Origin: an uncultured Candidatus Saccharibacteria bacterium
Lineage (GTDB): Bacteria; Patescibacteriota; Minisyncoccia; UBA6257; UBA9933
Assembly (NCBI GenBank): GCA_964642155.1
Contig: CAZXNT010000001.1
Span: 83 to 64,082, forward strand
Reading direction: 5' to 3'
DNA: 64,000 nucleotides
Shown here: positions 43,160 through 61,513 of the stretch, one piece after another
Numbering within the stretch: the first letter of the stretch is position 1
Layout of the letters: each line of letters opens with the position of its first letter
Notes under the pieces: generated by a model
The model's input: only the letters and a program-made list of their open reading frames with translations
What the model was told of the DNA's origin: nothing
Databases searched by the model: none
Made by a program: the position numbers and the translations under genes

Positions 43160-44857
43160 ATGGAAAATATCAAAGACATCACCGTATTCGCCAAAACAAA
43201 CTTCCGCAATAAGGACCGCTCTTTTGGCATCAAAACCGTTGACCGCCGCCAGCATATGTACGTCATCGGAAAAACCGGCACCGGTAAAACCACTATGCTT
43301 TTTAACGTGGCTCTTCAAGACATTATTAATGGCCGGGGAGTTTGCATTGTGGACCCGCACGGCGAATTCGTTGAAACAGTTATGAAAAGAATTCCCAAAG
43401 AACGGCTTAAGGATGTTGTTTATTTCAACCCGATAGACGCCGAACATCCGATAGGATTTAACGTATTGGAAGTCTCTGACCCGAAATACAAACACTTGGT
43501 GTCTTCGGATTTAATGGCGATTTTCACCAAAATCTGGGCGAATGTCTGGTCAGCCAGAATGGAGTACATTTTAAGTAACTGTGTTTTAGCTTTAATAGAT
43601 ACGCCCGGCACCACGCTTTTGGGCATACCGAGAATTCTTGTTGATAAAGATTATCGCCAGCGAATTATCGCCAATATTAAAGACCCGGTGGTAAAATCAT
43701 TCTGGATAAATGAATACGAAACATGGCGCGACCAATTCCGAAATGAAGCCATTGTCCCTATTCAAAACAAAGTCGGGCAATTTCTTTCAACTTCACTCAT
43801 CAGAAATATAGTCGGTCAGCCGAAAAGCACTATCAATATTCCCGAAATAATGAATAACGAAAAAATCCTTTTGGTTAATCTTTCAAAAGGAAGAATTGGA
43901 GAAGACAACGCCGCGCTTCTGGGAGCGATGATTATCACAAAAATCCAATTGGCGGCAATGGAAAGAGTAAGAATCCCGGAATCCGAAAGAAAAGATTTTT
44001 ATCTTTATGTTGACGAATTCCAAAATTTCGTTACCGACTCATTCGCCAATATCCTTTCTGAGGCAAGAAAATATCGGTTAAATTTGATTATTGCACACCA
44101 ATACATCGGTCAACTGGCGACTAAAGATTCAACTGTTGTACGAGACGCCATTTTCGGCAACGTCGGAACAATGATAATTTTTCGCATCGGCGCCACGGAC
44201 GCGGATTTTCTGGAAAAAGAACTGGAACCGGAATTTACCATTGAAGACGTTGTTAATCTGCCCAATCGCCAGATTTATTTAAAACTTATGGTTGATGGCG
44301 TTACCAGCCGGCCATTCTCTGCCAACACGCTACCACCTCTTGCCGTAACGACGCTCGACAATAATCACGAAGAGGTTATTGAAATGTCGCGTAAATTGTA
44401 CTCTAAGCCAAAACGCGAGGTTGAAGAAGAAATTTCCAGATGGAGCGGATTAGCAACAGAAAGACCAATAATAGAAAGAAAATTCGGTGGCGAAAAAAAT
44501 GAAGGGCGGGAAATTAGAGGAACCAGACCGGCTTTTGGAAGAGAGGGTTTTAAAAAATTTACGCATGCCGGGCATTTGGGAGAAATCGGCATAGAATTTG
44601 AACCGCCACGGCGAAAAACTTTTGGAGAGGTTAAAGCGCCATTAAAAAAAGAAATTTCTTTGGAAGAATTGAAAAAACCTGATTTGGTAAACCCCGTTAG
44701 AAATAGTCCCGCTCAGCGGGACGCGATTTCTAACGGGGTAAAAAAATCGCCGGAACAAAAAGAACCGGCAATAAAAGAATTCGCCAAAAAATCAATAAAC
44801 GAAAATCAAATAGAAGAATTAAAAGATGCCATTAAGAAAGCGATAGAAGGAGCTTAA
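43160..44857 (+). CDS. Soluble VirD4/TraD/TraG-like (type IV coupling protein / FtsK-HerA superfamily) ATPase, paralog A
   Basis: Walker A GKTGTGKT, DPHGE, Walker B YLYVDEFQNF, IAHQYIGQL; no N-terminal TM helices. Confidence 0.6.
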   Translation: MENIKDITVFAKTNFRNKDRSFGIKTVDRRQHMYVIGKTGTGKTTMLFNVALQDIINGRGVCIVDPHGEFVETVMKRIPKERLKDVVYFNPIDAEHPIGFNVLEVSDPKYKHLVSSDLMAIFTKIWANVWSARMEYILSNCVLALIDTPGTTLLGIPRILVDKDYRQRIIANIKDPVVKSFWINEYETWRDQFRNEAIVPIQNKVGQFLSTSLIRNIVGQPKSTINIPEIMNNEKILLVNLSKGRIGEDNAALLGAMIITKIQLAAMERVRIPESERKDFYLYVDEFQNFVTDSFANILSEARKYRLNLIIAHQYIGQLATKDSTVVRDAIFGNVGTMIIFRIGATDADFLEKELEPEFTIEDVVNLPNRQIYLKLMVDGVTSRPFSANTLPPLAVTTLDNNHEEVIEMSRKLYSKPKREVEEEISRWSGLATERPIIERKFGGEKNEGREIRGTRPAFGREGFKKFTHAGHLGEIGIEFEPPRRKTFGEVKAPLKKEISLEELKKPDLVNPVRNSPAQRDAISNGVKKSPEQKEPAIKEFAKKSINENQIEELKDAIKKAIEGA

Positions 44858-45192
44858 AATTTAGGCCTAATTTGCGGAGGAATATTCGGCTTATCGCTTA
44901 TCGGCCTGATTAAAATCAGGCGTAAAAGTTTTAATATCACCAACACTAAAATAAAATATCCCGCCATTGCCGAAAGAGTTGTAAAATCAATTATTCCCTT
45001 CTCAAGATAAACATTTGGAAATATGAATTTAAACGGCGCCGCTATAAAATCGGTTATTTTATAAAGCAATTCCACGATAAGCGCTTTTGAGCTGGCTGCT
45101 AAAAATTTCAAAACTACTCTAACGCCCAAAACAATTTCTAACAAACCGGTCAGATATTTAATTATCGCGGAAATATAATAATATTTTTCCAT
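44854..45192 (-). CDS. Hypothetical small membrane protein (2 TM)
   Basis: ORF; hydrophobic. Confidence 0.35.
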   Translation of the reverse strand: MEKYYYISAIIKYLTGLLEIVLGVRVVLKFLAASSKALIVELLYKITDFIAAPFKFIFPNVYLEKGIIDFTTLSAMAGYFILVLVILKLLRLILIRPISDKPNIPPQIRPKF

Positions 45193-45220: not shown

Positions 45221-47086
45221 TTACGCAACCTCCGCTTGATAACACTTCTCGCAGTATACTATCTCTTTTCTCTCGGGTGCATAGGTAGTTTCAAACTCAT
45301 TGCGACAGGGTTCTGTTCCGTGAGTATGAGTAATGGTGTTTTGATAAACTCCGTTGTCTGATTTAGTGCCATTACATTGGCACTTTCTTTTCCATAATTT
45401 GAAAGGGTTTCTTTGTTTGATTCTCTGATAATGACGGCAGTTGGGACATAATCTGGGCAAGGGAAGATTCATTTTACGGTAAAATTCCAGTTCTTGGGGG
45501 ATGATTTTGAAGGCAGTTGTGCACCCCGACGCATCTTGGTCGGGGCTCCGACCCCTTTGGGCGTCGGAGTTGTTCGCGCATTGAATAACTTGGTTTAATA
45601 TATCATCTTTAACATCCTTTATATGATCAGGGAGTTGATCTGATTTTATAGTTATTGGTATGTTCCTTTCTTCCGGGTCTTTCCAGCTATATCCTTGTTC
45701 TATGGCTTGTTCTTTGGTCAAGGGGAAATATTCTTGGGCTATGGTTTCATTATACGCAAACGGACTTAATTCCGGCGGGAAAAATTCTCCATATTTGTAT
45801 ATCCTACCTTTTTTGTCCACATACGGCATAGAATTCATATGTTCTATGATTTGAGTCCTGAGCTTGTCGAAGGATTCCTTGGTATATTGTTTGTTGAGAA
45901 TGCAGTATTTACCTTTTCGCACCATACTGCATCCAAACATATAATCAGATGAAACGACTGTATCGCAATATTGTAAATAATCACCTATCCATGAACCAAA
46001 AGAAAATTTTGTATTGCTAATATTTTCTCCACAATTAATTGATTCATACATTAAAGAAGCATTATTTCCCCAATCGCCATAATCATAACAATCTTTACTA
46101 ATCGGCATATGCGCCTGAAAACAATATTTTAAATTTTCTCCTCCAACAATATCAAATGAATAAAAAATATTTTTACTATTAGAAATATAATCGCCGGAAA
46201 CATTTAAATTTAAGAGTCCATTAGTATTGGGCTTATTTATAGAATTTAACCAAAAATCTTCTGACTTTTTTTTATATTCTCTAATTATTTTAAAAGACTT
46301 AAAATTTAAATTTTCAATAAATTTAGAATATTCTTCTTTTGAATATGGCTTATTAAAAATATGATAATTTTTATGCCTTAAATTTGTACAACTAAAACAA
46401 TTTTGACAGTTTTTAAGATTTTTTGAGAAATAAACATCAATACAATCCAAACAATTCATTGAGAAAGAACACTTATAACAATTTTCGCAATTAAAAAGCT
46501 CATAAGATTTTTGTGTATTAAAAACCCTATAGCAATCCATGGAATCCTGAGATCCCACTATAATTGACGAGTAAGAGCAATTTTCGTTATCTTCGGCTTG
46601 TATTACTAAATAACAATTTTTTAACGGACCGGTATAATTAGTGTATTCGCTATTTATACTGCGTAAATAATCTATTAATAAACTTATCCTTGGAATTTTA
46701 TTTAATAATTCTCTAAATTGTTCAAAAAACGGCTTAGAAAAATCATAATCCCTGCCATAATCTAAAGCATTCCATTTATCCGACAACCAACAAGACGGAC
46801 AATAAACAGGAAAAGAAGTATTCTGGGGATAAACAGCTATTATTAATTTATCACATAAATCGCATTTCCTTTTATAAAAAGTTCTTTCATTTTTGAAGGT
46901 CATTCTTCGTATCAACCTGCACTCCGGACAAAAAGTCGGCGCCGGCACTTGCAGTTTTTTATACATCTCAATATCTTCAATAAAGATATCAAAATTAACA
47001 CTGCATTGTTTGCAAGTTTTACTGTGGGGTTGAAGATTATCTAAAATCTCACCCAACGCTTTATCAAATTGTGGGGTTTTGGACAT
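45221..47086 (-). CDS. Large Cys-rich protein, paralog 1. N- and C-terminal zinc-ribbon-like modules (CxxC...CPxCR...RKC), internally duplicated Cys-cluster / LRNKxYxIxNKQYSKEEY modules
   Basis: See findings. About 50 Cys; conserved termini shared with 48901..50697 and 50722..52371. Confidence 0.6.
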   Translation of the reverse strand: MSKTPQFDKALGEILDNLQPHSKTCKQCSVNFDIFIEDIEMYKKLQVPAPTFCPECRLIRRMTFKNERTFYKRKCDLCDKLIIAVYPQNTSFPVYCPSCWLSDKWNALDYGRDYDFSKPFFEQFRELLNKIPRISLLIDYLRSINSEYTNYTGPLKNCYLVIQAEDNENCSYSSIIVGSQDSMDCYRVFNTQKSYELFNCENCYKCSFSMNCLDCIDVYFSKNLKNCQNCFSCTNLRHKNYHIFNKPYSKEEYSKFIENLNFKSFKIIREYKKKSEDFWLNSINKPNTNGLLNLNVSGDYISNSKNIFYSFDIVGGENLKYCFQAHMPISKDCYDYGDWGNNASLMYESINCGENISNTKFSFGSWIGDYLQYCDTVVSSDYMFGCSMVRKGKYCILNKQYTKESFDKLRTQIIEHMNSMPYVDKKGRIYKYGEFFPPELSPFAYNETIAQEYFPLTKEQAIEQGYSWKDPEERNIPITIKSDQLPDHIKDVKDDILNQVIQCANNSDAQRGRSPDQDASGCTTAFKIIPQELEFYRKMNLPLPRLCPNCRHYQRIKQRNPFKLWKRKCQCNGTKSDNGVYQNTITHTHGTEPCRNEFETTYAPERKEIVYCEKCYQAEVA

Positions 47087-47104
47087 AAAAATTATTCGGA
47101 TATT

Positions 47105-47413
47105 TTATTTAATACACGTCTGCAACCACTCCTTGTATTCCTTATTAACTCTAAAAATATTGATTACGGCTATGCAAGGAAGTATTTTTTGATGATTTTG
47201 TTCGTGAATTAAATTTTCAATCTCCTGCACTTTGGCTTCTACGGTTTTTATTAAAACAGTTATGCCCGGCTGGCTGACCACCCCTTCATCTCCCTGATAT
47301 AAAAAATTTACTCTTGATAAATCAACCGTGCCTGCCAATCCTTTTTCAAGAATAAGTTTGCTTACTTTTTTTGCTTCTTCTTCATCGGAATATGTAACGT
47401 GGATAAATACCAT
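47105..47413 (-). CDS. cutA: Divalent-cation tolerance protein CutA-like
   Basis: 102 aa. MVFIHVTYSDEEEAKK...GLAGTVDL...YKEWL matches the CutA1 fold pattern. Confidence 0.55.
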   Translation of the reverse strand: MVFIHVTYSDEEEAKKVSKLILEKGLAGTVDLSRVNFLYQGDEGVVSQPGITVLIKTVEAKVQEIENLIHEQNHQKILPCIAVINIFRVNKEYKEWLQTCIK

Positions 47414-47417
47414 ATTA

Positions 47418-48875
47418 TTACACTATTGGCTCTTCCGACGGCAATGAAATTTCCGTGGAAGATTTATTTTCGACCTTTGAAATTGGAGCATCGGAGTTTC
47501 CGGCGGAGGACGGCTTTGTAGCCAATCCCTCTTCTTCCGCAATTTTTCTTTTTACTTCTTCAATTGACGAACAATAAATTTGACGATTGTATTCAATGAT
47601 TTTATCTTTATAAGACGGATGCGTTGGCGGTAAAATTTTTAAAGTTTCAGCGGAAAACGGGTCAGCAGTGCCGCCGTCAATGGTCATTTTAATGTAAAAT
47701 TCCTGCATTCCCAGATTTATCATGTCTTTTGCCTTGAAAACCGGCGTCATTTCTTTTTCAAAAACAAGCGCGTCATCGCCGCCAAGCCGAAAAATTACCA
47801 TTGTCGCCACATTGCCCAAAAAAGTCGCCATTATTTGCGGCTGAAGCTGAGCGCGATACTGATGCGCCACTATTAAAGCCAAGCCGTATTTTCTCGCCTC
47901 AGTAAGAATATTGATAAAAGTATCCGTTACCACGTTGTAAAATTCATCAACATAAAAATAAAAATCTTTTCTTTCTCTTTCTTTAATTGCCGACCTTGCC
48001 GTGCCGGCTTGATAAATTTTTGTCACAAACATTGAGCCAAAAAAACTGGAATTTTCTTCTCCTAATTTCCCTTTTGATAAATTTATAAGCAGAATTTTCT
48101 GCTCATTCATTATTTTTTCAAGGTCAACTTTATTTTCTTTTTGACCGAAGATATAACGCAATAATGGATTGGATAAAAACTGACCAAGTTTATTAACTAA
48201 GGGAATAATGGCTTCGGTGTCAAATTTTTCCGACCAATCGGCAAATTCAATCGCCCAAAATCTTTTAACCATTTCGTCTTGGATATATTCCACAACTTTT
48301 TGGCGATAATTTCTATCATTAAGCAATTTCAACATTCCATGCATAGTTGCGTCTGGATAATCAAGTAACGCCAAACAAGTAAATCTAAAAACGTGCTCCA
48401 ATCGCGGCGTCCAATTAGCGCCAAATTGTTTTTTTAAAACTTCAATTAACCCTTGCGTTACTTGATGTTTCATTTCCGGCTCCACATTTTGCAAAGGATT
48501 AAATGAAACCGGCCAATTTGTGTCAGACGGGTCAATTAAAACAACATCCTTTATTCTGTTTTCCGGAATAAAATTAAGAATATCTTCTATAATATCGCCG
48601 TGCGGGTCCATTAAACATAATCCATGGCCATAATTAATATCTTGCCTAATCATTAATTCAAGCATTTTTGACTTCCCCACTCCGGATTTCCCAATAATGT
48701 AGAAATGGCGTCTGCGGTCATTCCTTTTAATTCCAAAAACATATCTTTTGCTTTCAAATTCTGATTCGTAGTTGGTGCGACCGAAAAAACAAACCTCTTG
48801 AGGGTCAACTTGTCCGTAAATCGGCAAATCCGAAGGCGGCGATGCGTATTTAATTATTTTAACTTTATCTGTCAT
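47418..48875 (-). CDS. Soluble VirD4/TraD/TraG-like ATPase, paralog B
   Basis: Walker A GKSGVGKS, DPHGD, Walker B FYVDEFYNV, VAHQYRAQL. Confidence 0.6.
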   Translation of the reverse strand: MTDKVKIIKYASPPSDLPIYGQVDPQEVCFFGRTNYESEFESKRYVFGIKRNDRRRHFYIIGKSGVGKSKMLELMIRQDINYGHGLCLMDPHGDIIEDILNFIPENRIKDVVLIDPSDTNWPVSFNPLQNVEPEMKHQVTQGLIEVLKKQFGANWTPRLEHVFRFTCLALLDYPDATMHGMLKLLNDRNYRQKVVEYIQDEMVKRFWAIEFADWSEKFDTEAIIPLVNKLGQFLSNPLLRYIFGQKENKVDLEKIMNEQKILLINLSKGKLGEENSSFFGSMFVTKIYQAGTARSAIKERERKDFYFYVDEFYNVVTDTFINILTEARKYGLALIVAHQYRAQLQPQIMATFLGNVATMVIFRLGGDDALVFEKEMTPVFKAKDMINLGMQEFYIKMTIDGGTADPFSAETLKILPPTHPSYKDKIIEYNRQIYCSSIEEVKRKIAEEEGLATKPSSAGNSDAPISKVENKSSTEISLPSEEPIV

Positions 48876-48900
48876 TTACTTTTTATTATAGCACTTTACC

Positions 48901-50697
48901 TCAAACAACCTCCTGTTGATAGCATTGTTCGCAATACACAATTTCTTGTCTATCTGGGCTGTAAGTGGTTTCAAATTCATTGAGGCAGGGTTCTGTTCCG
49001 TGAGTATGGGTAATGGTGTTTTGATAGATATTGTTTTCTGATTTTTCTCCAGCGCATTGGCATTTTCTTTTCCATAATTTTAAAGGATTTCTCTGTTTGA
49101 TTCTCTGGTAATGGCGACAATTGGGGCACAATCTAGGTAAAGGAAGATTCATTTTACGGTAGAATTCCAGTTCCTGAGGAATGATTTTGAAGGCTTCTGT
49201 ACACTGCTCGTTGCAAGTTCCTTTATGCTGACATTCTATAATTTGATTAAAAATATCGTCTTTGACATCTTTAATATTGTCGGGTAATTGAGAATTTAAA
49301 ATTGAAAATTGAAAATTTCTAACCTCCGGGTCTTTCCAGTTATAGCCCTGTTCTATTGCCTGTTCTTTAGTCAGAGGGAAATATTCTTGAGCTATTGTTT
49401 CGTTATACGCAAACGGACTTAATTCCGGAGGAAAGAATTCACCGTATTTGTAAACTACTTGTCCTGAGCTTGTCGAAGGATGCCTTTTTGAGATATAGGG
49501 CATATCATTCATATGCTTGATAATTTTCGGCACCAATTTTTCGTATTCTTCTTTACTATATTGTTTATTCAAGATGCAGTATTGCTTGTTGCGAAGGCCG
49601 ATGCAGCCAAAGAGGTTAGAGGAATTGTGACAATTATAAGAGTAATAGACATCCTGTCCTCCCCATATAACAACACCAAACATTAATCGTGAAGCCTGAA
49701 CTCCTGTATCAATAACTTCATATAACATTTCTCCATTTACTCCAACGCCATAACCATCATAGCTATCTCGTAAATCCAACGCGTTCATAACAAATTTACA
49801 ATCCCTCACATTTCCCACAACATCAAAACAATTCAAGCAATTAAAACTATTGTTAACCGCATCACCTGTAATTTTTTGAGAATGTGAAATATTCGCCGAT
49901 TTTCTTAATGCTTTTAATTTTAATTCATTAAATTTATTTTTAATTTCTTTTAAAAATTTAAAATGACCTATATTAAATTGTTCCAATTTATTAAAATATT
50001 CTTCTTTTAAATAGGGTTCGTTAAAAATATGGTATTGCTTATTTCTCAAACCCACTGATCCAAAAACATTTGAACAGCCTTTGCAATCATAAATAAACGA
50101 ACAATTGTTGCAATTTTCGGAATCTTGAGCAAAAAAGGTTGAATATAATTTCGCGGAACTTATATCCTCATAACAAAGCTCACAATTAATAACCGCAAAA
50201 TTATCCGCTGAATCTTTTGATTGGTTACATCTGGATGAATACATTATATTCTCCCCATCCCACGACGCGGAAACTAAATAACCGTTTTTAAAATCTCCTA
50301 TATGATTGCAAAAATTGCTGTTTATTGATCTCCCGTTAAACAAAGCTGGCATTGGCACATGAAGCATTAAATCTTTAAATTGCTTTAAAAAAGTGTTTTT
50401 AAAATCCAATTCTATACCGAAATTCAAAGCGTCCCAATCATCAGACCACCAAATATCTCTATTATAAACCACAATTCCAGATTGTGGAGAAAAACATGAA
50501 ATAAGATCTTTTCCTGTTTTAGCGCACTTATTCCTATAAAAACTTCTTTCGTTTCTATATGTAAATCTCCTCTGTATCCTGCACTCCGGACAAAAAGTCG
50601 GCGGAGGAACCTTTATTTTGGCGTAGAATTCAAAATCTTCGAACTCAATTGTAAAATCATTTTTACAGTTTTGGCATTTTTTTATTTCTTGATTCAT
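48901..50697 (-). CDS. Large Cys-rich protein, paralog 2
   Basis: Same architecture as paralog 1. The C-terminal ~200 aa is ~90% identical to paralog 1. Confidence 0.6.
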   Translation of the reverse strand: MNQEIKKCQNCKNDFTIEFEDFEFYAKIKVPPPTFCPECRIQRRFTYRNERSFYRNKCAKTGKDLISCFSPQSGIVVYNRDIWWSDDWDALNFGIELDFKNTFLKQFKDLMLHVPMPALFNGRSINSNFCNHIGDFKNGYLVSASWDGENIMYSSRCNQSKDSADNFAVINCELCYEDISSAKLYSTFFAQDSENCNNCSFIYDCKGCSNVFGSVGLRNKQYHIFNEPYLKEEYFNKLEQFNIGHFKFLKEIKNKFNELKLKALRKSANISHSQKITGDAVNNSFNCLNCFDVVGNVRDCKFVMNALDLRDSYDGYGVGVNGEMLYEVIDTGVQASRLMFGVVIWGGQDVYYSYNCHNSSNLFGCIGLRNKQYCILNKQYSKEEYEKLVPKIIKHMNDMPYISKRHPSTSSGQVVYKYGEFFPPELSPFAYNETIAQEYFPLTKEQAIEQGYNWKDPEVRNFQFSILNSQLPDNIKDVKDDIFNQIIECQHKGTCNEQCTEAFKIIPQELEFYRKMNLPLPRLCPNCRHYQRIKQRNPLKLWKRKCQCAGEKSENNIYQNTITHTHGTEPCLNEFETTYSPDRQEIVYCEQCYQQEVV

Positions 50698-50721
50698 AAT
50701 TTTTTATTCATAATCCATAAA

Positions 50722-52371
50722 TTATACCACTTCTCTTAAATAACACTCTTCACAAACAATTTTTTTATATCCCCATTCTTTTGGATAATAGGAAACAATA
50801 TTTTTTTGACAAAACGCGCATTTGGCCTCAACCGGATTGATGCAGAACAAATTTTTTATTCTGCTTTTGGTGCGCACATCAGGATAGTGATGAGGCAAGG
50901 GAATGGAATGTTTTTTGTAAAATTCAACTTCTTCCCGCCTTAAATTAAACGGTCTGCCTGTTTCTTCGCACAAAAAAACCCTACCAGCCATTTCATCACC
51001 CACAGTGCTTATATCATCTATAAATGGATTTATGGTTAAGTTAGAAACATCAGCATCTTCAAGCTCTTCCCAATTTCCTTCCGATTTAACAACTTCTTCT
51101 TTTACCTTGGGGAAAAATATTCCGGCTAAAGAAAGATTATATCCTCCGTGCGCCATTTTATAAGGAAAAAATTCGCCATAAGAACCATCATTTTCCATCG
51201 CCTGCTTGATTTTAGCCACCAAATCATAATAATCTTCTTTGGAATACTGCTTATTTAAAATGGAATAGCTTTTATTTTTCAACCCAACGCACCCGAAACA
51301 ATTTTCGCACCCGACACAGGAATCAAGATATTCACTGTCACGGCAATTTATACAATAATTAGAGTGCTTCATATTGTATATCTCAGTCATTTGATTTACG
51401 TCATACGCCAATTCTCCTTTATAAACCCCAGTCGAGTCATTTACGTCCTTATTCATCGCTCCTCTGAAATAATAAGAACAATCCTCCGATTTTTCCAAAA
51501 AATAAGAATTTTTACATTTTTTACACTCGCTTAAATAATTACCGCTTGAATTAACGGTTTTGGTATTGAAATTATTTTTATGAACCGCTTCTTCCTTAAT
51601 TTTTTTCTCAAAAGTTTTCTTTAAAAATTGAATCGTATTCCAAGAATTTAAATTATATTCCTTCAATTTCTGAAAATATTCTTCCTTGGAATACGGCTGG
51701 TTTAAAATATAATATTCTTTATTGCGCAAATTCCAACACATAAAGCAATTTCTCATGTTGTGGCAGTCATACAAAAACGAGGCGTCAAAACTGTCTCGCG
51801 TATCAAAAGCGTATTTTACATTATAAAGCTTAAAACAATAGGAGCAGTCGTAGGATAGTTCAGAATCATAACAATAAGTTAGATCATATGAATCGCGACA
51901 ATTTAAGGTTCTGTATGAATATAAAAGATTTTCGCAATTTGCCAAAGACCGACAAAGATAGCAATTTTTTGAATCCCACACATCATCGCAATAATCGCAA
52001 TTTTGATTATTAGAGCCGAATTGGTGCGGTTTGGGCGCTTTTGTTTGCAATTCATAAAGCTGGTCAAAAAAAGTTTTGGAAAAGTCGTATTCTAAAAAAG
52101 GCGGTTCCCAAGCATCCGAATACCAATGACTCGATTTATATACCGGAAAGTGCACGTTTGACGGAAAAATAGAAATTATGCTTTCTCCGCTCAAATCGCA
52201 TTTTCTTTTGTTAAATTTGGCAAACGGCCAAAAAGCCAGCCGTTTTTGTTGACGACAACTTGAACACATTCTCGGCGCCGGGACTTTTATTTTAGCGTAA
52301 AACTCAAAATCCTCCGGCTCAATGGTAAACTGGTTTTTACAGTTTTGGCACTGTTTGGTTTCGGAAATCAT
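50722..52371 (-). CDS. Large Cys-rich protein, paralog 3 (more divergent)
   Basis: N-terminal CQNCKNQFTIEPEDFEFYAKIKVPAPRMCSSCRQQKR, internal duplicated modules, and a C-terminal Cys ribbon. Confidence 0.55.
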   Translation of the reverse strand: MISETKQCQNCKNQFTIEPEDFEFYAKIKVPAPRMCSSCRQQKRLAFWPFAKFNKRKCDLSGESIISIFPSNVHFPVYKSSHWYSDAWEPPFLEYDFSKTFFDQLYELQTKAPKPHQFGSNNQNCDYCDDVWDSKNCYLCRSLANCENLLYSYRTLNCRDSYDLTYCYDSELSYDCSYCFKLYNVKYAFDTRDSFDASFLYDCHNMRNCFMCWNLRNKEYYILNQPYSKEEYFQKLKEYNLNSWNTIQFLKKTFEKKIKEEAVHKNNFNTKTVNSSGNYLSECKKCKNSYFLEKSEDCSYYFRGAMNKDVNDSTGVYKGELAYDVNQMTEIYNMKHSNYCINCRDSEYLDSCVGCENCFGCVGLKNKSYSILNKQYSKEDYYDLVAKIKQAMENDGSYGEFFPYKMAHGGYNLSLAGIFFPKVKEEVVKSEGNWEELEDADVSNLTINPFIDDISTVGDEMAGRVFLCEETGRPFNLRREEVEFYKKHSIPLPHHYPDVRTKSRIKNLFCINPVEAKCAFCQKNIVSYYPKEWGYKKIVCEECYLREVV

Positions 52372-52880
52372 ATCAATTCCAATTCAATATTTAAAAGTTC
52401 TTCCATTGTTTTATGATAAATTTCGATTATTCTTTTAGCTTCTCCTATCGGCAAATGAAAATCGGCTTCGTGGGCAAGCCTATTCCTAACTTTATGCGCT
52501 TCCCATAATTCATTTATGTTTTTAAATTCGCTCGGATGAATTGATTTTAATCGCTCTCCCATATCTTGGCCCGGATGGCCGTGTTCTTTTAAAATTTCGT
52601 CAACCAAACTGTCGGCTTCAATAATCGCCAAACGCAAATCGCGCTCATCGCCGGATTTTATTCTTTCTAATAATTTACTCCATTTTTTATGAATTAATTC
52701 TCTATGCTTGATTATCTGCCTATATTTACCGTCAGTTACTTTCAAACCCTTAAGAAGATTAAGAGTTTCCGAAGGATTCAATTTTTGCCTGAATGCCGAA
52801 GATTTTACCATCAGCCAAATAATGGCGATGACTAACGCCAGTATTAGAATAATTAAAATAATTTGCAAAGTTAATATCAT
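52368..52880 (-). CDS. Membrane-anchored protein with C-terminal HEPN-like Rx4H motif (RNRLAHE)
   Basis: N-terminal TM helix; C-terminal ELWEAHKVRNRLAHEADFHLPIGEAKRIIEIYH (R-x4-H in a helix). Confidence 0.4.
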   Translation of the reverse strand: MILTLQIILIILILALVIAIIWLMVKSSAFRQKLNPSETLNLLKGLKVTDGKYRQIIKHRELIHKKWSKLLERIKSGDERDLRLAIIEADSLVDEILKEHGHPGQDMGERLKSIHPSEFKNINELWEAHKVRNRLAHEADFHLPIGEAKRIIEIYHKTMEELLNIELELI

Positions 52881-52885
52881 AAAAT

Positions 52886-54232
52886 TTACTCTTCTTCAAA
52901 TATCGGTAAACCCGCCGGCGGACCCATTTTCTTGCTTTCTGTCCGTTCAATATGCGGAGATGTCAAAACTTGTTCAGCCGGGATATGATAAATAGTCGCG
53001 AGTTCAGAAGTGACAAAAATTGAAGTTTTTGATTTATTATTAAAATCAAAAATATACGATGTCATAAATCTGCCAAAGAACAATTTTTCCGGAAATAATC
53101 TATTCTTGAAATTATATAATAATCGTTGTTTTCTCGCTTCAACTCTTTGGTCAATAAAAACATGAGGAGAATAAATCCATCTTGATCTAGTCTCAACCAA
53201 GGGATTATTCTTAAAAAAATTTAAAGAAGAAGCATATTGGTTAAAAGCGCCCAAAATGCCCTTTCTCGCAAAATTTGTATTATAAATAGAATTTGGAGCA
53301 ATATAAAGAAAACGAATTAAGCTTTCAAAACCGTGCTTGGAAAGTTTATTTTCAATTTCTTTCATGGCTTCGTAGTCGCTGATATTTGCCGGCTCTTTTT
53401 TTGCCGGTTCTTTCGGTTCAGACCAAACGGGATATTCCGTCGGCGCCCATAAAAAATTTTTCGCCCATTCATATATAATTTGATTAAACCCTCCTTTTTT
53501 CCCTTCTTCTTTGCCGAGTTTTTTATTTACAAAATCTCTTCCCTCATTTTTCCAATCATCATTAAGCGGAGCGATTAAAATTTGGATAAAAACGTTTTCT
53601 TCTTTATGAATCCCAGCCAAAACTTCAATGAGTGCTGAGAGAGGATCAACTATTACTTGTTTTTGGTCATCAAGTTTTGCAGGTTGATTAAAAAAATGGT
53701 CGTAAGTAATAATAGGATAAAAATCCTGTTTGCCTAAATTAAACTCACTGCCAAAAATATTCTCATTACTCTCATAAAATTCTTTTGTAGAATTAGGTAA
53801 TTTGTTAAGATAATCTTCGGCCTCAATAATTTCAATATTGGGATATTGCGCGTGCATTCCCGCTTCAAACATTTTTTGATTTTTTTTCGGCGTTCTGATA
53901 TAAAAATGGATTTTGCCGCCAAGACTCGCTATTTCCAGACTCCACCATAAAGTCACCTCGCCATCAGTATATTTTTCTAAAAAATTTCCGGGTTCATTCT
54001 TTAAGCTATGCAAATTTATAAAAAATTGCTCCATTGCCTTCGGCGTTTTCAAAACTTCACGAGGAATTTTTAATTCCAAAACCGCCCATTTAATAGTTTT
54101 TTTATAGAGTGACTGCTTATAAAAAAGCCATGCCTGCTCAAATATTTTAAAAAGCGCTATTACCAACGCTAAAAGTCCCAATAAGAATAAAATTGAGTAA
54201 ATTAAAGATTGATTTGACTCAAAAAAAGCCAT
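52886..54232 (-). CDS. Hypothetical membrane-anchored protein (448 aa)
   Basis: N-terminal TM helix; no recognised domain. Confidence 0.4.
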   Translation of the reverse strand: MAFFESNQSLIYSILFLLGLLALVIALFKIFEQAWLFYKQSLYKKTIKWAVLELKIPREVLKTPKAMEQFFINLHSLKNEPGNFLEKYTDGEVTLWWSLEIASLGGKIHFYIRTPKKNQKMFEAGMHAQYPNIEIIEAEDYLNKLPNSTKEFYESNENIFGSEFNLGKQDFYPIITYDHFFNQPAKLDDQKQVIVDPLSALIEVLAGIHKEENVFIQILIAPLNDDWKNEGRDFVNKKLGKEEGKKGGFNQIIYEWAKNFLWAPTEYPVWSEPKEPAKKEPANISDYEAMKEIENKLSKHGFESLIRFLYIAPNSIYNTNFARKGILGAFNQYASSLNFFKNNPLVETRSRWIYSPHVFIDQRVEARKQRLLYNFKNRLFPEKLFFGRFMTSYIFDFNNKSKTSIFVTSELATIYHIPAEQVLTSPHIERTESKKMGPPAGLPIFEEE

Positions 54233-55261
54233 TTATTTAACACTATATTTGCCGTCCGGCATTCTTTTAAAATGCCTTCTGTTTTGGAGATTGAGCAAAA
54301 TAGTATTGTCTTTAAGGAACCTTTCCTGCTTTACCAAATCAACAACTTCTTCTTTATGAAGCGGCCCCTTTGTTTTCAAAATCCGCATAATAACGTCTTT
54401 GGCGATACCCGGTTTCAAACCGAATTCCGAAAGCCCGTACATGCCCCGTCCAACCAAAACAAAACGCGGGTCTTTTATCAATTCATTATGAATGGTTTGA
54501 TAAAGGGCGTGGCGCTTATTAAGTTTAAGTTCGTTTATTTTTTTCGCGATTTCTTTGAAATGCAACGGAGCGCTGTGCTTTTTTAAAATCAAATAAGCTC
54601 TCGCCCGGGCGGTTTTGGGAGTTATTTCTTCCCAATGCGTCAAACCAAAATCGCCAAAAGGACTCACTCCGAATTTTTTTGAAATTGAAGCGTAATTCAA
54701 AGCGATAAAATCTTTAACATTATGGGATTTGACGACTTGCGCAAAAAGTTCATCAAATTTTTTATGAGTGATAAGTTCTTCTTTTTTATCGGCAATAAAT
54801 TTTTCGAGCTTATTAATAAAATCAACGGCAAGCTTCTGTGATTCCTTATTTAAATACCAAAAGCTGTAAAAATTCTTTTCTTCAATTTGATGAAGAGGAG
54901 TTTTAAAAACTTCAAAAATAAATTTTAATTGTTCGCCGGTGATTGTGTTAGTTTTAAATAATCCCCTTAATTCATTAAGAAAAACATTTTCTCTCATCAC
55001 GCCGCCGACTTTTTTAAGGTGGTTGATAGCATCTTCAATTATTCTGCCGGCTGCCTGATTTTTTTTAAGTTTTTCGCTTATTGATTTCAAGCTGGCACTT
55101 TCAATTTGCCTCACCCTCTCGCGAGTTAAGCTGTATTTTTTGCCAACCGTAGCCAAAGTGCGCTTTTTGCCGTTCAAACCAAATCTTTGTTCAATAATAT
55201 CTTTTTGGCGCGGAGAAAGTCCAGAAATTAAATCGTTGATTATATTATTTATATTTTCCAT
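54233..55261 (-). CDS. Sigma-70 region-4-like HTH protein with ~250 aa C-terminal winged-helix-like extension
   Basis: LSPRQKDIIEQRFGL...KRTLATVGKKYSLTRERVRQIESASLKSI matches the sigma region 4 helix-turn-helix. Confidence 0.5.
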   Translation of the reverse strand: MENINNIINDLISGLSPRQKDIIEQRFGLNGKKRTLATVGKKYSLTRERVRQIESASLKSISEKLKKNQAAGRIIEDAINHLKKVGGVMRENVFLNELRGLFKTNTITGEQLKFIFEVFKTPLHQIEEKNFYSFWYLNKESQKLAVDFINKLEKFIADKKEELITHKKFDELFAQVVKSHNVKDFIALNYASISKKFGVSPFGDFGLTHWEEITPKTARARAYLILKKHSAPLHFKEIAKKINELKLNKRHALYQTIHNELIKDPRFVLVGRGMYGLSEFGLKPGIAKDVIMRILKTKGPLHKEEVVDLVKQERFLKDNTILLNLQNRRHFKRMPDGKYSVK

Positions 55262-55269
55262 TTTTATAT

Positions 55270-55299
55270 ATTATAAAGACAACACGGTTAATATGTCAA
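55270..55299 (-). promoter_or_regulatory. Consensus sigma70-type promoter (TTGACA-N18-TATAAT) driving a leaderless transcript for the 54233..55261 gene
   Basis: Minus-strand reading: GTTGACATATTAACCGTGTTGTCTTTATAATATATAAAA ATG. Only 8 nt separate the -10 hexamer from the ATG. Confidence 0.6.
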
Positions 55300-55342
55300 C
55301 CCCCCACATAAATTTATGTGAGGGTTAAGTGTTTTAACGATG

Positions 55343-55414
55343 TGGGCGCAAGAAGGATCGAACTTCTGACCTTTCCGATGTGAACGGAACGCTCTACCAC
55401 TGAGCTATGCGCCC
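55343..55414 (-). tRNA. tRNA-Val (anticodon CAC)
   Basis: Reverse complement GGGCGCATAGCTCAGTGGTAGAGCGTTCCGTTCACATCGGAAAGGTCAGAAGTTCGATCCTTCTTGCGCCCA; anticodon loop TTCACAT. Confidence 0.8.
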
Positions 55415-55490
55415 GATATTTTTAATTTAAAACAAAAAGACGCTCTTATCAAGCGTCTTCTTTATTCATAATTCATACTTCTTAATTCCA

Positions 55491-56623: not shown

Positions 56624-57220
56624 CTATTCCAATATCCCGTCCAGATTCACGTCATACAAAATCTTTTCGGAAACAAGTTTGTATTTTATTATTTCTTCCG
56701 GCTTAAACCACAAATTGATTTCTTTCCCCGCATCTTCAATTGAACCCGAAGCGTGAATCAAATTACGAATCGCCCTGTTATCAGCATCCGACAATTGGTA
56801 AGAATCCAAAACAAAATCGCCGCGAATAGTGCCGACATCGGAAGTAAATGGCTCCGTGCCGCCGACTAATTTCCTCGTTAATTTAACAGCGTGAACTCCC
56901 TGCCAAACCATGGCAATCACCGGTCCGGAACACATAAATTTTTTCAAATTGTTTAAAATAATTTCCGTAATTTTATAAGGGTCATCGTGCGGCGGCTCCA
57001 ATCCCTTATCGCGATAACTTTTAATTGTTTTTTCGCCGGTTATCCGCCACCATTCCGGGTCAATTGTATAATGCTTTTCAATAAAATCATTATCCGGAAC
57101 AACCATTTTTACTGCAACTAATTTCAAACCAACCCTTTCCAGGCGTTTTATAATTTCCCCGACCAAAGACCTCTGAATCCCGTCCGGTTTTATTATTACT
57201 AATGTTTTTTCGTTTTTCAT
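56624..57220 (-). CDS. ndk: Nucleoside diphosphate kinase with ~50 aa C-terminal extension
   Basis: TLVIIKPDG; NLIHASGSIEDAGKEINLWF (active-site His). Confidence 0.85.
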   Translation of the reverse strand: MKNEKTLVIIKPDGIQRSLVGEIIKRLERVGLKLVAVKMVVPDNDFIEKHYTIDPEWWRITGEKTIKSYRDKGLEPPHDDPYKITEIILNNLKKFMCSGPVIAMVWQGVHAVKLTRKLVGGTEPFTSDVGTIRGDFVLDSYQLSDADNRAIRNLIHASGSIEDAGKEINLWFKPEEIIKYKLVSEKILYDVNLDGILE

Positions 57221-58458
57221 AATGCCAAACTATAAACTTTGTTATCATATCTATTCACAAACAGCAATTGGTTGTCAAACGGCGTAAAATGTTCGGCATC
57301 CAAAGCCGGTTCAGCTTCGCCGTAAAGCCCGCTAAAAGTATTTTGATTAATGTCAATTTCGTAAATCGCGTCCGTTGAATAAGCCGCTCTTTTAAGGTAT
57401 TCGTCCGGCAATTTCGGCTCCTGAAAACTGGTATACGATTGCGGAATAGCGCAGTAAATTTTCGCCAGCCCGATTGAACATTTATTCGGCAACGTGGAAA
57501 ATCCCATATTGGCGCGATTTGTTCCATTCTTATCAATTAAATTTAATTTCCCGTTGGCGCCTTTGCTGTCACTTTCAAACTTCAAGCCGAATTCACCGTT
57601 ATCTTTCGCCCAATTCAGCATTAAACCATTACCGGAGATAAATGGGCTTATAGTTTTATTTTTAACGTCAATCGCGAAAAATTCACTATTGTATAAATAT
57701 GACGGCTTTTGAAACAAAATTATTTTATCATTATTAAACCAGTTTAAATCAAAATCCTTCTGCGTCAAAGAAAAAATTTTTAATGTTTGTTTTTTCTTGC
57801 CGACTAAATCTCTAATCATTAAATTGCTTGTTATTTTCGCTCCGGCTTCAAGATAGGCGATTTTTGTTCCATCCGGAGAAAATGTCGCAGCTGAAACTTT
57901 TTCCAACGGCTGCCACATTTTTGAAATCAAACTAAAAAGTTCAAGTTGCGGCGAAGTCAAATTTCCATAACGGACAATCACCATTAAACCGTCATTGTTG
58001 GCTTCTATTTTTTGCAAATTTTCAAAAGTCCGGTCGCTTATCATCTCATCTTCGCCTTCTTTTGCCCTAAAAATTTGTCCGCTTTGATTAAAATAAAAAA
58101 CTTGCTTTTCCAGATTTTTAAGAGTTGAAGTTGCTGAAGACGCGGAAGAAGTGGAAGTAGCGGCTGTGGAAGTGGCGACAGTTTTCGCAACAACCGAAAC
58201 AGTCTTGGATGTCTGGTCTTGTATAAAAACTAACGGTCCGCCGGTTGCCCAATAATCAAAAACCGGCTGGTCGCTGATAATTTGCAATTTTTTCTTTTCG
58301 CCGGTTCCGGACGCGATTCCGAATTCTCCCACTTGTTCAACTCCGGCGCCGGGAGTTAAAATTTCTTTGGATTTTTTATAAGCAAAATACGCGCCGATTC
58401 CAATGGCGATAATTCCCAAAACAACGCCAATTATGATAAATATTTTTTTCTTGGTCAT
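57217..58458 (-). CDS. Membrane-anchored TolB-like beta-propeller protein with S/T-rich linker
   Basis: N-terminal TM; TSTAATSTSSASSATST linker; FSPDGTKIAYLEAG-type repeats. Confidence 0.4.
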   Translation of the reverse strand: MTKKKIFIIIGVVLGIIAIGIGAYFAYKKSKEILTPGAGVEQVGEFGIASGTGEKKKLQIISDQPVFDYWATGGPLVFIQDQTSKTVSVVAKTVATSTAATSTSSASSATSTLKNLEKQVFYFNQSGQIFRAKEGEDEMISDRTFENLQKIEANNDGLMVIVRYGNLTSPQLELFSLISKMWQPLEKVSAATFSPDGTKIAYLEAGAKITSNLMIRDLVGKKKQTLKIFSLTQKDFDLNWFNNDKIILFQKPSYLYNSEFFAIDVKNKTISPFISGNGLMLNWAKDNGEFGLKFESDSKGANGKLNLIDKNGTNRANMGFSTLPNKCSIGLAKIYCAIPQSYTSFQEPKLPDEYLKRAAYSTDAIYEIDINQNTFSGLYGEAEPALDAEHFTPFDNQLLFVNRYDNKVYSLAL

Positions 58459-58535
58459 TTTTTATTTAAAATTTAATCCAATAACTTTATTAACGATTAT
58501 TATATCATTTTAAAACGATGAAATACATGACTAAA

Positions 58536-59198
58536 TTATCGCAATAATTGGCAATTAAAATTTTTCCCAACGCTATCATTACATCCATTTAATGGACATT
58601 GACAACTTTGTTGACATTTTTCTAAATTAGGATAACTACTCATTGTGTGAGTACTAGTTATCCCAATCGCATTCGTGGTTTGATATTTACACTCATATCC
58701 TACGTTATATCGAATCGGTTCTTCTTTTTTCGATTCTTGCTTTTTTACCTCAACCGGCACTAACTTTTCCATTTCCAAATTCACCAATCTTGTGCCGCCT
58801 ATTGTCCGCAAAAGCAAATTTGCGCCCAATAACAGAACCAAGCCCCAGACAGCGCCGGTAATCCAGGAAATGGCGTCTGCTTGCCCTGATGGATTCCCCG
58901 CGGAAACCGTGTATTTTATGCCGCCAAAAATTATAGCTCCCAAAGCCGCTACTCCGACTGCGGCTAAGGCGTAATTATAAAAATTTCTTACCAAACCAGC
59001 GATGTCGCCGACCTTACCCTTACACCAAGGATATTGCTGATCGCAAGAAATATTAGATTTAGCAGTTTGATTTTCTATACATTCTTCATATTCTCCTGCC
59101 AGAAACTTTAAATCTTCACTACACGCCGCCAATGCCAAAACCGGCGCTGTTAAAATTAGAATTACAAAAAATATTAAAAAAAACTTATAAAAATTCAT
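58536..59198 (-). CDS. Secreted Cys-rich protein with VirB2/TrbC pilin-like two-helix hydrophobic core, paralog 1
   Basis: Signal peptide; FYNYALAAVGVAALGAIIFGGIKYTVSAGNPSGQADAISWITGAVWGLVLLLGANLLLRTI is two hydrophobic helices joined by a short polar loop. Confidence 0.45.
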   Translation of the reverse strand: MNFYKFFLIFFVILILTAPVLALAACSEDLKFLAGEYEECIENQTAKSNISCDQQYPWCKGKVGDIAGLVRNFYNYALAAVGVAALGAIIFGGIKYTVSAGNPSGQADAISWITGAVWGLVLLLGANLLLRTIGGTRLVNLEMEKLVPVEVKKQESKKEEPIRYNVGYECKYQTTNAIGITSTHTMSSYPNLEKCQQSCQCPLNGCNDSVGKNFNCQLLR

Positions 59199-59199
59199 A

Positions 59200-60324: not shown

Positions 60325-61024
60325 CTAATTTTATTTGACTGCTCGCGAATTCCATTTCATCGGCAAGATTTTTAATTATTGCCTGGATGTTAATACCGAA
60401 TCCCGAAGGCGCCAAATTATCTATGTTTAATTTTAATATGTCTGCGCTTCCAGAAGCGCTTTCCGCCGATTGGCCGTTAACCGTCCAATCAAAAGACAAT
60501 TTACTCAAATCATCAATATTAAAGAAAAAAGGATAAACATTGAATATATTGGTTCCGTTCGGCAGTTGACGGTTGGAATACGGCGCGCCAATAACAGTCT
60601 CCGGACTTGCCAAAGGAATTATAATCGTTTCGCCGATTTGTTCTCCCGCGTAATCAACAATAACAATACGCACGTTAATATCGTCATTCGCGTAATTATC
60701 AACGCCGAAATAAAAATTTTTTATCCCCAAGCCGTCGTCTTCATTTCTTTTTAATTTGTCATTCACATACCAGCGAACTTTATTTTTTGACAAATCAACA
60801 ATCCTGCCGTTTTCAATCAAATCAAAAGAAACATACATCCAGCTTCCTTTGGTCGCCAAAATCTTGCCCTGATACCACGACGGCGCGTAATTTTGCGACC
60901 GCCAAGTGGTTAAAAATCGTGGCTGTGAAACAGTTTGCGCGCTTCCTGTTTGGCTTATAAAGCCTATTAGACTTATCAGAATAATAAGTCCTATTAATCT
61001 CATGTGTCCTATTTGTTTTTTCAT
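60314..61024 (-). CDS. Hypothetical secreted protein
   Basis: Signal peptide MKKQIGHMRLIGLIILISLIGFISQTGSA. Confidence 0.4.
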   Translation of the reverse strand: MKKQIGHMRLIGLIILISLIGFISQTGSAQTVSQPRFLTTWRSQNYAPSWYQGKILATKGSWMYVSFDLIENGRIVDLSKNKVRWYVNDKLKRNEDDGLGIKNFYFGVDNYANDDINVRIVIVDYAGEQIGETIIIPLASPETVIGAPYSNRQLPNGTNIFNVYPFFFNIDDLSKLSFDWTVNGQSAESASGSADILKLNIDNLAPSGFGINIQAIIKNLADEMEFASSQIKLDVK

Positions 61025-61045
61025 TTATTTTAAAAAATTATAACA

Positions 61046-61489: not shown

Positions 61490-61513
61490 AATAAATTGTT
61501 ATGAATACCCTAT

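Follow-up and report, generated by a model that had tools for sequence, protein, structure and literature searches.

A stretch of 64,000 nucleotides from an uncultured Candidatus Saccharibacteria bacterium (GenBank assembly GCA_964642155.1, contig CAZXNT010000001.1, positions 83 to 64,082 of the forward strand; hereafter the window) encodes three related cysteine-rich proteins, designated p1, p2 and p3, which belong to a large family of Patescibacteria. We propose that the members of this family are non-enzymatic adaptor or recognition subunits of an ATPase machine that is independent of any type IV secretion system (T4SS). We hold this reading tentatively, at a probability of roughly 0.4. The kinds of domains involved, i.e. 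treble-clef fingers, beta-solenoids and an ATPase resembling the type IV coupling proteins (T4CPs), are known, but neither the family as such, nor its architecture, nor the gene cluster in which it occurs has been described: no publication on any of these was found in the literature, nor on DUF8128, PF23477, DUF87 in Patescibacteria, or cysteine-rich paralogues of Parcubacteria.

The three proteins are encoded on the reverse strand by open reading frames (ORFs) for 621 (p1, 45221-47086), 598 (p2, 48901-50697) and 549 residues (p3, 50722-52371), p3 representing a subfamily of that length. Pairwise identity is 52% between p1 and p2 and 34% between p1 and p3, and cysteine makes up 5.0-5.8% of the residues. 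An initial annotation of the window had described the genes as three tandem paralogues; they are indeed three co-directional paralogues, but p1 is set apart from p2 by genes for an ATPase (47418-48875) and for CutA1 (47105-47413). The order of parts is the same throughout: an N-terminal pair of zinc fingers (a basic finger resembling zf_Tbcl, then a CxxC-x17-CxxC finger followed by a helix), two successive beta-solenoids each with a cap, a conserved acidic linker, and a C-terminal repeat of the double finger.

All peptides quoted in that annotation were found in the three ORFs, and the two repeats that it had described were borne out. The module at the N-terminus recurs at the C-terminus (local alignment z-scores of 16.4, 14.4 and 9.1 for p1 to p3, with none of 500 shuffles reaching the observed score; HHalign profile-profile probability 99.5%, E-value 2.5e-23, 75 columns), and each protein contains an internally duplicated module of about 140 residues (z-scores of 8.7, 16.6 and 17.4; HHalign 99.9%, E-value 3.4e-37, 118 columns). 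The shuffling and the profile-profile comparisons rule out that the recurrence is a low-complexity artefact. The consensus given for the N-terminus matches literally in p2 only, as p1 has E-MY in place of (E/D)-FY, and p3 has C-SS-CR and lacks NE.

No family could be assigned to p1-p3 in Pfam, NCBIfam, PADLOC or PHROGs, other than sub-threshold similarity to zf_Tbcl and a match to phrog_15341, a family of unknown function (E-value 1.2e-6 on the p3 solenoid). Searches of the PDB by sequence gave at best an E-value of 0.11, i.e. chance level, with a single sequence and no match with a 51-sequence profile, and a Foldseek search of the PDB with the first structural model gave nothing with an E-value below 4. 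Membership of a known enzyme family thus found no support in Pfam, NCBIfam or the PDB, and neither an enzyme fold nor a catalytic constellation is visible in the models. All relatives are annotated as 'hypothetical protein' in the databases.

Linkage to coupling-protein-like ATPases

For the comparison of gene neighbourhoods, ORFs were called in 85 sources, i.e. the window and 84 fetched loci, and then clustered. The commonest neighbour of family genes is a cluster of T4CP-like ATPases and DUF8128-type proteins, found in 37 of the 85 sources, while any other neighbour is found in at most 14. Of the 230 genes that lie no more than 500 bp from a family gene, 33 encode T4CP-like ATPases, versus 6 of the 710 genes at distances above 2 kb (odds ratio 19.7). 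Nearly all of these ATPases (56 of 58) are co-directional with the family genes, many with gaps of less than 100 bp. A recurrent order is S-D-(t)-A-F(n), in which a sigma-70 region 4/HARE-HTH gene (S) and a DUF8128-like gene (D) precede a gene for a small membrane protein (t, not always present), the ATPase gene (A) and a variable number of family genes (F); often a second, longer ATPase is present in addition (L013, L022, L029, L031, L036, L053, L076). The order is also kept on a contig labelled 'Peregrinibacteria' (L086), where seven paralogues surround a gene in which DUF8128 and ATPase are fused.

The link extends to the proteins themselves. A long form of the ATPase, of about 700 residues, contains a C-terminal CxxC-x17-CxxC finger that scores above the cut-offs of zf_Tbcl_2 (42.2 versus 27 bits) and TIGR04272 (43.7 versus 36). 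This finger and the '...YDETKFFKPLADLGIEF' segment that follows it align with family residues 44-114 (HHalign probability 98.7%, E-value 2.4e-16, 70 columns), a region comprising the second zinc site of the N-terminal module (site B), a tryptophan-rich segment and the helix '...YDFSKPFFEQFxEL'. Because the ATPase tail and the family have this finger-plus-helix domain in common, a shared partner would explain the adjacency better than chance synteny. The long ATPases (L017:4104-6263 and 15 similar ORFs, e.g. L028:4566-6752 and L029:4333-6405) have low-complexity tails of about 250 residues, which hold the zinc finger and a conserved 'LADLGIEF' motif; most of the tails inspected end in '(E/K)(V/I)PEDVL(R/K)K(I/V)L(E/N)'.

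The ATPases are distant relatives of VirD4, TraD and TrwB: their scores against the VirD4-like and TraD models of NCBIfam are far below the equivalog cut-offs, and the best solved relative of the window's ATPase A is TrwB, with an E-value of 0.007. They resemble T4CPs in carrying TrwB_AAD_bind, TraG-D_C and DUF87 domains, in being anchored in the membrane and in having a long tail at the C-terminus. In classical T4CPs the tail recruits partners such as TraM (Pfam description of TraG-D_C), and here the family has a domain in common with the ATPase tail. They differ from T4CPs in that the anchor is a DUF8128-type domain, often encoded by a separate gene. A difference from T4SSs is that no relaxase was noticed, and that the T4SS genes of the window are without homologues at the other loci. 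A 2025 survey counted 5,713 VirD4-like T4CPs in 2,918 Patescibacteria genomes, about two per genome, of which only 148 lie near virB4, and its authors considered exaptation to another function possible (PMC12102498).

Several other genes recur within 10 kb of family genes (e.g. L035:707-2596 and L025:6675-7763), among them those for DnaK (14 loci), DnaJ (13 loci) and CysRS, and for an ABC ATPase, an AI-2E transporter and a PaaX_M-domain protein. The chaperones, ABC ATPase, AI-2E transporter and CysRS, found in 10-14 loci, were treated as lineage synteny, because they are neither adjacent to the family genes nor ordered relative to them. Genes for TrmB-like helix-turn-helix (HTH) proteins lie directly beside family genes at L086 (14808-15572 and 17347-18108) and L087 (9150-9908), and the loci of Paceibacteria type have the sigma-r4/HARE-HTH protein as cluster head where L086 and L087 have TrmB-like genes.

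Terminal zinc-finger modules

Structure models were made with AlphaFold2 (AF2) for p2 from 51 sequences (mean predicted local distance difference test score, pLDDT, of 80.6; predicted template modelling score, pTM, of 0.81) and for p3 from 125 sequences (pLDDT 90.9, pTM 0.90). In these models and in the alignment, each terminal module consists of two consecutive zinc sites, A followed by B. In p2 the N-terminal module comprises residues 1-118 (50344-50697, reverse strand), with site A formed by C8, C11, C36 and C39, a degenerate site B, and then the tryptophan-rich segment and helix. Its C-terminal module comprises residues 486-598 (48904-49242, reverse strand), with site A' formed by C489, C499, C524 and C527, and site B' by C546, C571, C589 and C592, with an insert.

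Site A has the layout CxxC-x24-CxxC, and its four cysteines are 98-99% conserved. In both AF2 models a beta-hairpin knuckle carries the first cysteine pair, and a basic helix has the second pair at its N-terminus; according to DSSP, strands at residues 4-7 and 14-17 flank C8/C11, and a helix of residues 37-45 begins at C36/C39. The modelled fold is that of a treble clef, not of a rubredoxin or a classical zinc ribbon. The initial annotation had called the terminal modules zinc-ribbon-like; the pattern of zinc ligands at both ends agrees with this, but the fold in the models does not. The layout of site A (CxxC, F-x-[IF], E-xx-FY-x-K, P-x-P-xx-C-x-x-CR) resembles that of PF13451 (zf_Tbcl, 'probable treble clef domain'). 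Matches to this family are below threshold in 20 of 51 homologues (best E-value 2.3e-4; p3 14.9 bits, E-value 0.026); no member reaches the gathering score of 24 bits, and p1 and p2 have no match. Different from PF13451 is that a second finger invariably comes after the first, and that the pair occurs twice per protein of about 600 residues. No paper on PF13451 was found in the literature, so membership of this family would bring no mechanism.

Site B is a CxxC-x17-CxxC finger, of which among p1-p3 only p1 has an intact N-terminal copy (C75-x2-C78-x17-C96-x2-C99, in the context ...YPQNTSFPVYCPSC). In the C-terminal module of p3 site B is intact (C518-x2-C521-x18-C540-x2-C543), and the cysteine ligands of the first half are gone (HHYPDVR); C-terminal modules of the p1/p2 type have a histidine-rich insert of about 22 residues in site B. 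The spacing and the VPF-x-P...RP-VYC-xx-C type of consensus are like those of the CxxC-x17-CxxC domain (TIGR04272/PF23477, zf_Tbcl_2), with the difference that the site is degenerate in most N-terminal modules of the family. PF23477 is matched directly by one of 51 members only (E-value 0.029), and TIGR04272 by none of p1-p3. In small proteins of Methanosarcina mazei this domain binds zinc, as measured by inductively coupled plasma mass spectrometry, and the authors of that study suggest a role in transcription (PMC12704099).

Among 284 members, the ligands of one site are kept or lost jointly: phi is 1.0 for the N-terminal site B, present in 24% of the members, and 0.98-1.0 for the C-terminal site A', present in 69%. 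In being all-or-none across members, the ligands behave as those of real tetrahedral sites would. Zinc binding by the terminal modules is predicted from these patterns, and the sites are presumably occupied. The site-A fingers have a net charge of +3.7 and +6.9, and the solenoids and linker are acidic (-5.6, -3.7 and -6.0). Since the site-A fingers are basic, the suggestion of the initial annotation that p1-p3 are nucleic-acid-binding zinc proteins stays plausible.

Beta-solenoids of the middle region

The internally duplicated module had been described as a cysteine-cluster module. This description did not hold, as the cysteine columns have the register and the substitution pattern of a solenoid core. 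The middle cysteines keep a single register modulo 3 over about 90 residues, with the autocorrelation peaking at every third lag as far as 27. In most of these columns only 20-70% of the members have cysteine, which exchanges freely with Ser, Val, Ala, Thr, Ile or Leu, and the co-occurrence of the cysteines is weak (phi at most 0.65) and driven by subfamilies. The best conserved middle cysteines form i, i+9, i+18 ladders beside the cap, those of the last solenoid coil being conserved at 84-96% (alignment columns 205/208/211/214) and 79-96% (columns 356/365/374). In the coil of the Tenebrio antifreeze protein (1EZG) every third residue faces inward. Because of the same period-3 register, the 'cysteine clusters' are best explained as the inward core ladder of two narrow beta-solenoids, so that the middle cysteines are predicted to be core residues and not metal ligands. 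Metal clusters formed by them were considered and rejected on the substitution and covariation patterns.

In p2, solenoid 1 with its hairpin/helix cap (GLRNKxYxIFNxPYxKEEY) comprises residues 119-262 (49912-50343, reverse strand), and solenoid 2 with its cap (GLRNKQYCILNKQYSKEEY) residues 263-400 (49498-49911, reverse strand). The conserved hairpin/helix motif GLRNKxYxI(L/F)NxxYxKEEY would close each solenoid as a cap. The characteristics of a narrow parallel beta-solenoid were found in the family; the nearest known examples are the antifreeze proteins of Tenebrio molitor (1EZG) and ryegrass (3ULT) and the curli protein CsgA (8C50). The family differs from these in having no sequence homology to them, no predicted secretion, and neither the disulfide core of the Tenebrio protein nor the amyloid Q/N repeats of CsgA. 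No signal peptide or transmembrane (TM) segment was found in the family; a signal peptide is precluded by the first zinc knuckle, which begins at residue 8.

Distribution, evolution and selection

Relatives of p2 form at least 7,940 clusters at 90% identity and those of p3 3,711; at 50% identity there are at least 4,813 representatives, 2,085 of them with an E-value of at most 1e-30, and at least 560 relatives occur in species-representative genomes. All sources that were named or fetched belong to the Patescibacteria (Lipton-, Giovannoni-, Nomura-, Jorgensen-, Staskawicz-, Sung-, Kaiser-, Wolfe-, Kuenen-, Peregrini- and Gracilibacteria). Labels from outside the candidate phyla radiation are attached to a few carriers, namely L067 (Burkholderiales), L069 (Gammaproteobacteria) and P0373 (Oligoflexia), of which L067 and L069 have the same gene content. 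L067, with five family paralogues, two T4CP-like ATPases and otherwise typical patescibacterial content, is probably misbinned, and L085, a 1.37-Mb contig with genes for PLP synthase and shikimate dehydrogenase, may come from a carrier whose genome is genuinely larger. No relative was found in phage and viral collections (tblastn against INPHARED and a scan of IMG/VR).

Two or more copies within 10 kb on either side were found in 48 of the 85 sources, the number per locus ranging from 1 to 9. One 808-kb chromosome probably contains at least ten copies in two distinct arrays, with members 30-46% identical. In some genomes of about 0.8 Mb the family accounts for at least 1% of the genes.

For 97.6% of the members that have a paralogue at the same locus, the nearest relative is found in another genome, and best identities average 45% inside a locus and 60% between genomes; the paralogues are ancient. 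The picture of conserved termini around a variable middle, as drawn in the initial annotation, applies at the level of the whole family, where the solenoid regions are least conserved (0.37-0.46 versus 0.7-0.8), but not within the p3 orthologue group, where the solenoids (0.63 and 0.50) match the termini (0.51 and 0.44) in conservation. When paralogues are compared, the solenoids fall to 0.31 and 0.28, while finger A and cap 2 are at about 0.5 in both comparisons. The C-terminus, including the C-terminal third, ranks with the best conserved regions, and its extreme end (...CExCYxxEVV) is nearly invariant.

Selection is strongly purifying. In comparison with a close relative of the window (L022; one orthologue pair), the ratio of nonsynonymous to synonymous substitution rates (dN/dS) is 0.077 for p3, with 0.054 for solenoid 1 and 0.014 for solenoid 2; p1 gives 0.16. 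The C-terminal thirds of p1 and p2 are 80-88% identical in amino acids and only about 50% identical at third codon positions. Because the latter have diverged, this likeness is kept by selection; gene conversion was considered as its cause and ruled out on the same grounds.

The array of L022 (2671-11785) corresponds to that of the window (45221-52371) with amino acid identities of 96% for the ATPase, 93% for D, 87% for p3 and 75% for p1. The slot of p2 is taken by another paralogue, with an identity of 53%, and where the window has CutA1, L022 has a fourth paralogue. In this single pair of genomes the array content thus varies between close relatives, which points in the opposite direction to the conservation of the sequences. 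The synonymous divergence (dS) along p3 ranges from 0.46 to 3.0 in the same pair, which hints at mosaic recombination in the arrays.

The gene cluster of the window and its surroundings

The cluster is read on the reverse strand in the order S, D, t, p3, p2, A, CutA1, p1 and YGGT, with gaps of 0-28 bp. Directly upstream of its first gene is a promoter-like site (55270-55299, reverse strand; TTGACA-18-TATAAT, 12/12 positions, identified by its consensus match), and just upstream of this are a tRNA-Val (55342-55414) and a terminator-like hairpin (55434-55462). The head of the cluster, S (54233-55261, reverse strand), is a 342-residue protein with sigma-70 region 4 and HARE-HTH domains (Pfam Sigma70_r4, E-value 4.7e-14; HARE-HTH, 1.9e-10); homologues occur in 13 sources including the window, mostly directly before the D gene. 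D itself (52886-54232, reverse strand) is a DUF8128-like protein of 448 residues, with one TM helix, i.e. an N-terminal hydrophobic helix followed by a lysine-rich stretch. D matches the N-terminal part of phrog_5156 (52-308) and the ATPases match its C-terminal part, and DUF8128 and ATPase are fused in one polypeptide in L001, L068, L086 and in phrog_5156 itself. Because of these fused forms and the split match, D is the detached membrane anchor or N-domain of the T4CP-like ATPase.

The gene t (52368-52880, reverse strand) encodes a protein of 170 residues with an N-terminal TM helix, and its stop overlaps the start of p3 by 4 nt. Homologues were found in four sources including the window (L022, L034 and L053 in the gene maps), in L022 and L053 at the same position, and library searches gave no family match. 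The protein contains the sequence HKVRNRLAHE, with an R-x4-H motif as in HEPN domains, an assignment without a library match behind it. A (47418-48875, reverse strand) is the short form of the T4CP-like ATPase, with 485 residues (Pfam TrwB_AAD_bind, E-value 3.2e-11; also TraG-D_C and DUF87). The 102-residue CutA1 homologue (47105-47413, reverse strand; Pfam CutA1, 4e-15), found near the family in four sources including the window, is probably an operon passenger. The same probably applies to the last co-directional gene, which encodes a YGGT-family membrane protein of 112 residues (44854-45192, reverse strand; Pfam YGGT, 9.5e-7; two sources including the window). Convergent with the operon is a second T4CP-like ATPase of 565 residues, A2 (43160-44857, forward strand; TrwB_AAD_bind, 2.1e-15; phrog_5156, 7.8e-60), the tail of which retains 'LGEIGIEF' and is without the zinc finger; L022 has a convergent ATPase at the same position.

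The window is part of a patescibacterial chromosome, with genes for rpoB, an adjacent rpoC (by size and position), L10, L7/L12, NDK, PheS and TsaD. It also encodes two PAS-domain histidine kinases (8969-11515, forward strand, 848 residues; 14460-15785, reverse strand, 441 residues), MreB (5077-6084) and TGT (13173-14306). Upstream of the cluster, beyond NDK, L10, L7/L12 and tRNA-Val, lies a T4SS-like gene set on the reverse strand (57217-63253). It includes a VirB4-like ATPase (61514-63253, reverse strand; P-loop_TraG, 2e-24), a VirB2-like pilin gene (59200-60324, reverse strand; T4SS_pilin, 3e-7), a paralogous pilin gene with the same hydrophobic core (58536-59198, reverse strand), small membrane ORFs and a 413-residue ORF without a Pfam match; the VirB4-like and pilin genes are 2-8 kb upstream of the cluster. 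As no homologue of the VirB4-like, pilin and other T4SS-like genes was found in the other 84 loci, proximity to a T4SS is not a property of the family, and a general linkage of the two was rejected.

Possible function and alternative explanations

In the mechanism that we propose, p1-p3 would be soluble cytoplasmic proteins, co-transcribed with membrane-anchored VirD4/TraD-like ATPases that function outside any T4SS and are anchored through a DUF8128-type domain, fused or separately encoded. The constant basic fingers at both ends may dock on nucleic acid and/or the ATPase complex, and the solenoid faces, specific to each paralogue yet conserved between orthologues, would each bind a different conserved partner, which would then be presented to, or organised by, the hexameric motor. 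Nucleic-acid binding, the ATPase contact and the identity of the material moved are elements that we infer. More doubtful is whether the whole amounts to a hitherto undescribed, T4SS-independent machine of Paceibacteria type, consisting of exapted VirD4/TraD-like ATPases, DUF8128 anchors and a set of zinc-finger/solenoid proteins as cargo receptors or as cargo.

Several observations weigh against an adaptor function. To our knowledge, no T4CP partner or adaptor has a zinc-finger/beta-solenoid architecture, and up to nine or more copies per locus are many for an adaptor; the members might just as well be cargo. Single copies whose surrounding 10 kb contain no ATPase gene occur in L087, a Gracilibacteria locus, and in L085, the 1.37-Mb contig, and no ATPase or DUF8128-type gene is present in 48 of the 85 sources, many of them short contigs. 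The Fisher p-value for the adjacency (8e-16) overstates independence, because the loci are phylogenetically related. Finally, solenoid 1 is modelled less confidently (pLDDT 62-91).

As cargo, the proteins would be substrates that the T4CP-like ATPases recognise and then export, or inject into a host cell, possibly via a patescibacterial T4SS, with the nearly invariant C-terminal end (...CExCYxxEVV) as signal. The operon linkage to the ATPases fits this equally, as do the lack of a Sec signal, which is also lacking in substrates of T4SSs and type VII secretion systems, and the VirB4-like ATPase and VirB2-like pilins 2-8 kb upstream in the window; multi-copy arrays beside a motor resemble the substrate arrays of other secretion loci. 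We nevertheless consider export unlikely. Secreted effectors of host interaction are expected to evolve faster than these highly conserved sequences with their ancient paralogues (dN/dS 0.08), and about four zinc sites and two tight solenoids would have to be unfolded for export. Moreover, homologues of the VirB4 and pilins of the window are found in 0 of the 84 other loci, most patescibacterial T4CPs are not near virB4, and a single-TM anchor would not be expected to form a channel by itself. About as improbable in our view is that the family consists of nucleic-acid-binding zinc-finger proteins that work without the ATPase, in transcription, RNA metabolism or the handling of incoming DNA, and that the adjacency reflects operon hitch-hiking in one lineage. 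The basic treble-clef fingers at both ends and the single-copy loci without ATPase would be readily explained in this way, and so would the frequent HTH neighbours (sigma r4/HARE-HTH in 13 sources including the window, TrmB-like in L086 and L087); a role in transcription has been suggested for small proteins with the CxxC-x17-CxxC domain (PMC12704099). The tight, co-directional adjacency is, however, found in many named candidate groups and in various gene orders, the zinc-finger-plus-helix domain recurs in the ATPase tail, and the solenoids and linker are acidic.

The remaining explanations start from the middle region. The leading one of the initial annotation, a diversifying family of polymorphic, effector- or toxin-like proteins with a hypervariable cysteine-rich middle, is the least probable of all that we considered. 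Multi-copy co-directional arrays, uneven conservation and an array content that varies between related genomes are indeed features of polymorphic toxins and effectors; the solenoids are least conserved family-wide (0.37-0.46 versus 0.7-0.8), and the arrays of the window and L022 differ in the slot of p2 (53% identical) and in the extra paralogue of L022. The C-terminus of the family is conserved, though, and the paralogues are ancient and under purifying selection. With 97.6% of the nearest relatives elsewhere, solenoids conserved between orthologues and a solenoid dN/dS of 0.014-0.054 (0.077 for p3 as a whole), a diversifying family is not supported. No toxin, immunity, trafficking or defence family was found in Pfam, NCBIfam and PADLOC searches of p1-p3, no phage or viral homologue was found in INPHARED and IMG/VR, and ATPases, HTH proteins and housekeeping genes make up the neighbourhood. 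A redox, Fe-S or metal-storage function, in which the CxxCxxCxxC runs of the middle bind clusters or metal ions, is very unlikely as well. The cysteine content of 5-6%, the well conserved cysteines of the last solenoid coil and the CutA1 gene inside the operon, a hint of metal homeostasis, are in its favour. Most middle columns, however, lose their cysteines without correlated loss (20-70% Cys, phi at most 0.65), p2 lacks two of the four cysteines of the first run, and the strict period-3/9/12 register gives i, i+9, i+18 ladders that would not be expected to form a tetrahedral site. A comparison with Fe-S proteins and rubredoxins revealed no invariant ligand set in the middle and no match to an Fe-S family of Pfam, and CutA1 is near the family in only four sources, including the window. 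Equally remote is a polymer-forming role as cytoskeletal or fibre proteins like bactofilin or curli, with the solenoids stacked into heteropolymers of paralogues: the conserved caps and flanking globular zinc modules would be expected to block open-ended stacking, the pTM of 0.90 indicates a compact monomer, and the sequences show no similarity to bactofilin or curlin.

Conclusion

Read as clusters of metal ligands in a family engaged in an arms race, the cysteine-rich middle of these proteins is easily misinterpreted; the cysteines are predicted to form a solenoid core, and the family is conserved. In spite of their tiny genomes, many Patescibacteria keep three to ten or more copies of this protein of about 600 residues under strong purifying selection. 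The operon link and the shared finger/helix domain make the family a concrete candidate partner for the orphan T4CP-like ATPases of these bacteria. If a T4CP-derived machine of the kind proposed here exists, it would provide a function for thousands of orphan T4CPs, and would represent a translocation or sorting system of a new type, which handles DNA or proteins and is relevant to the symbiotic lifestyle of Patescibacteria.

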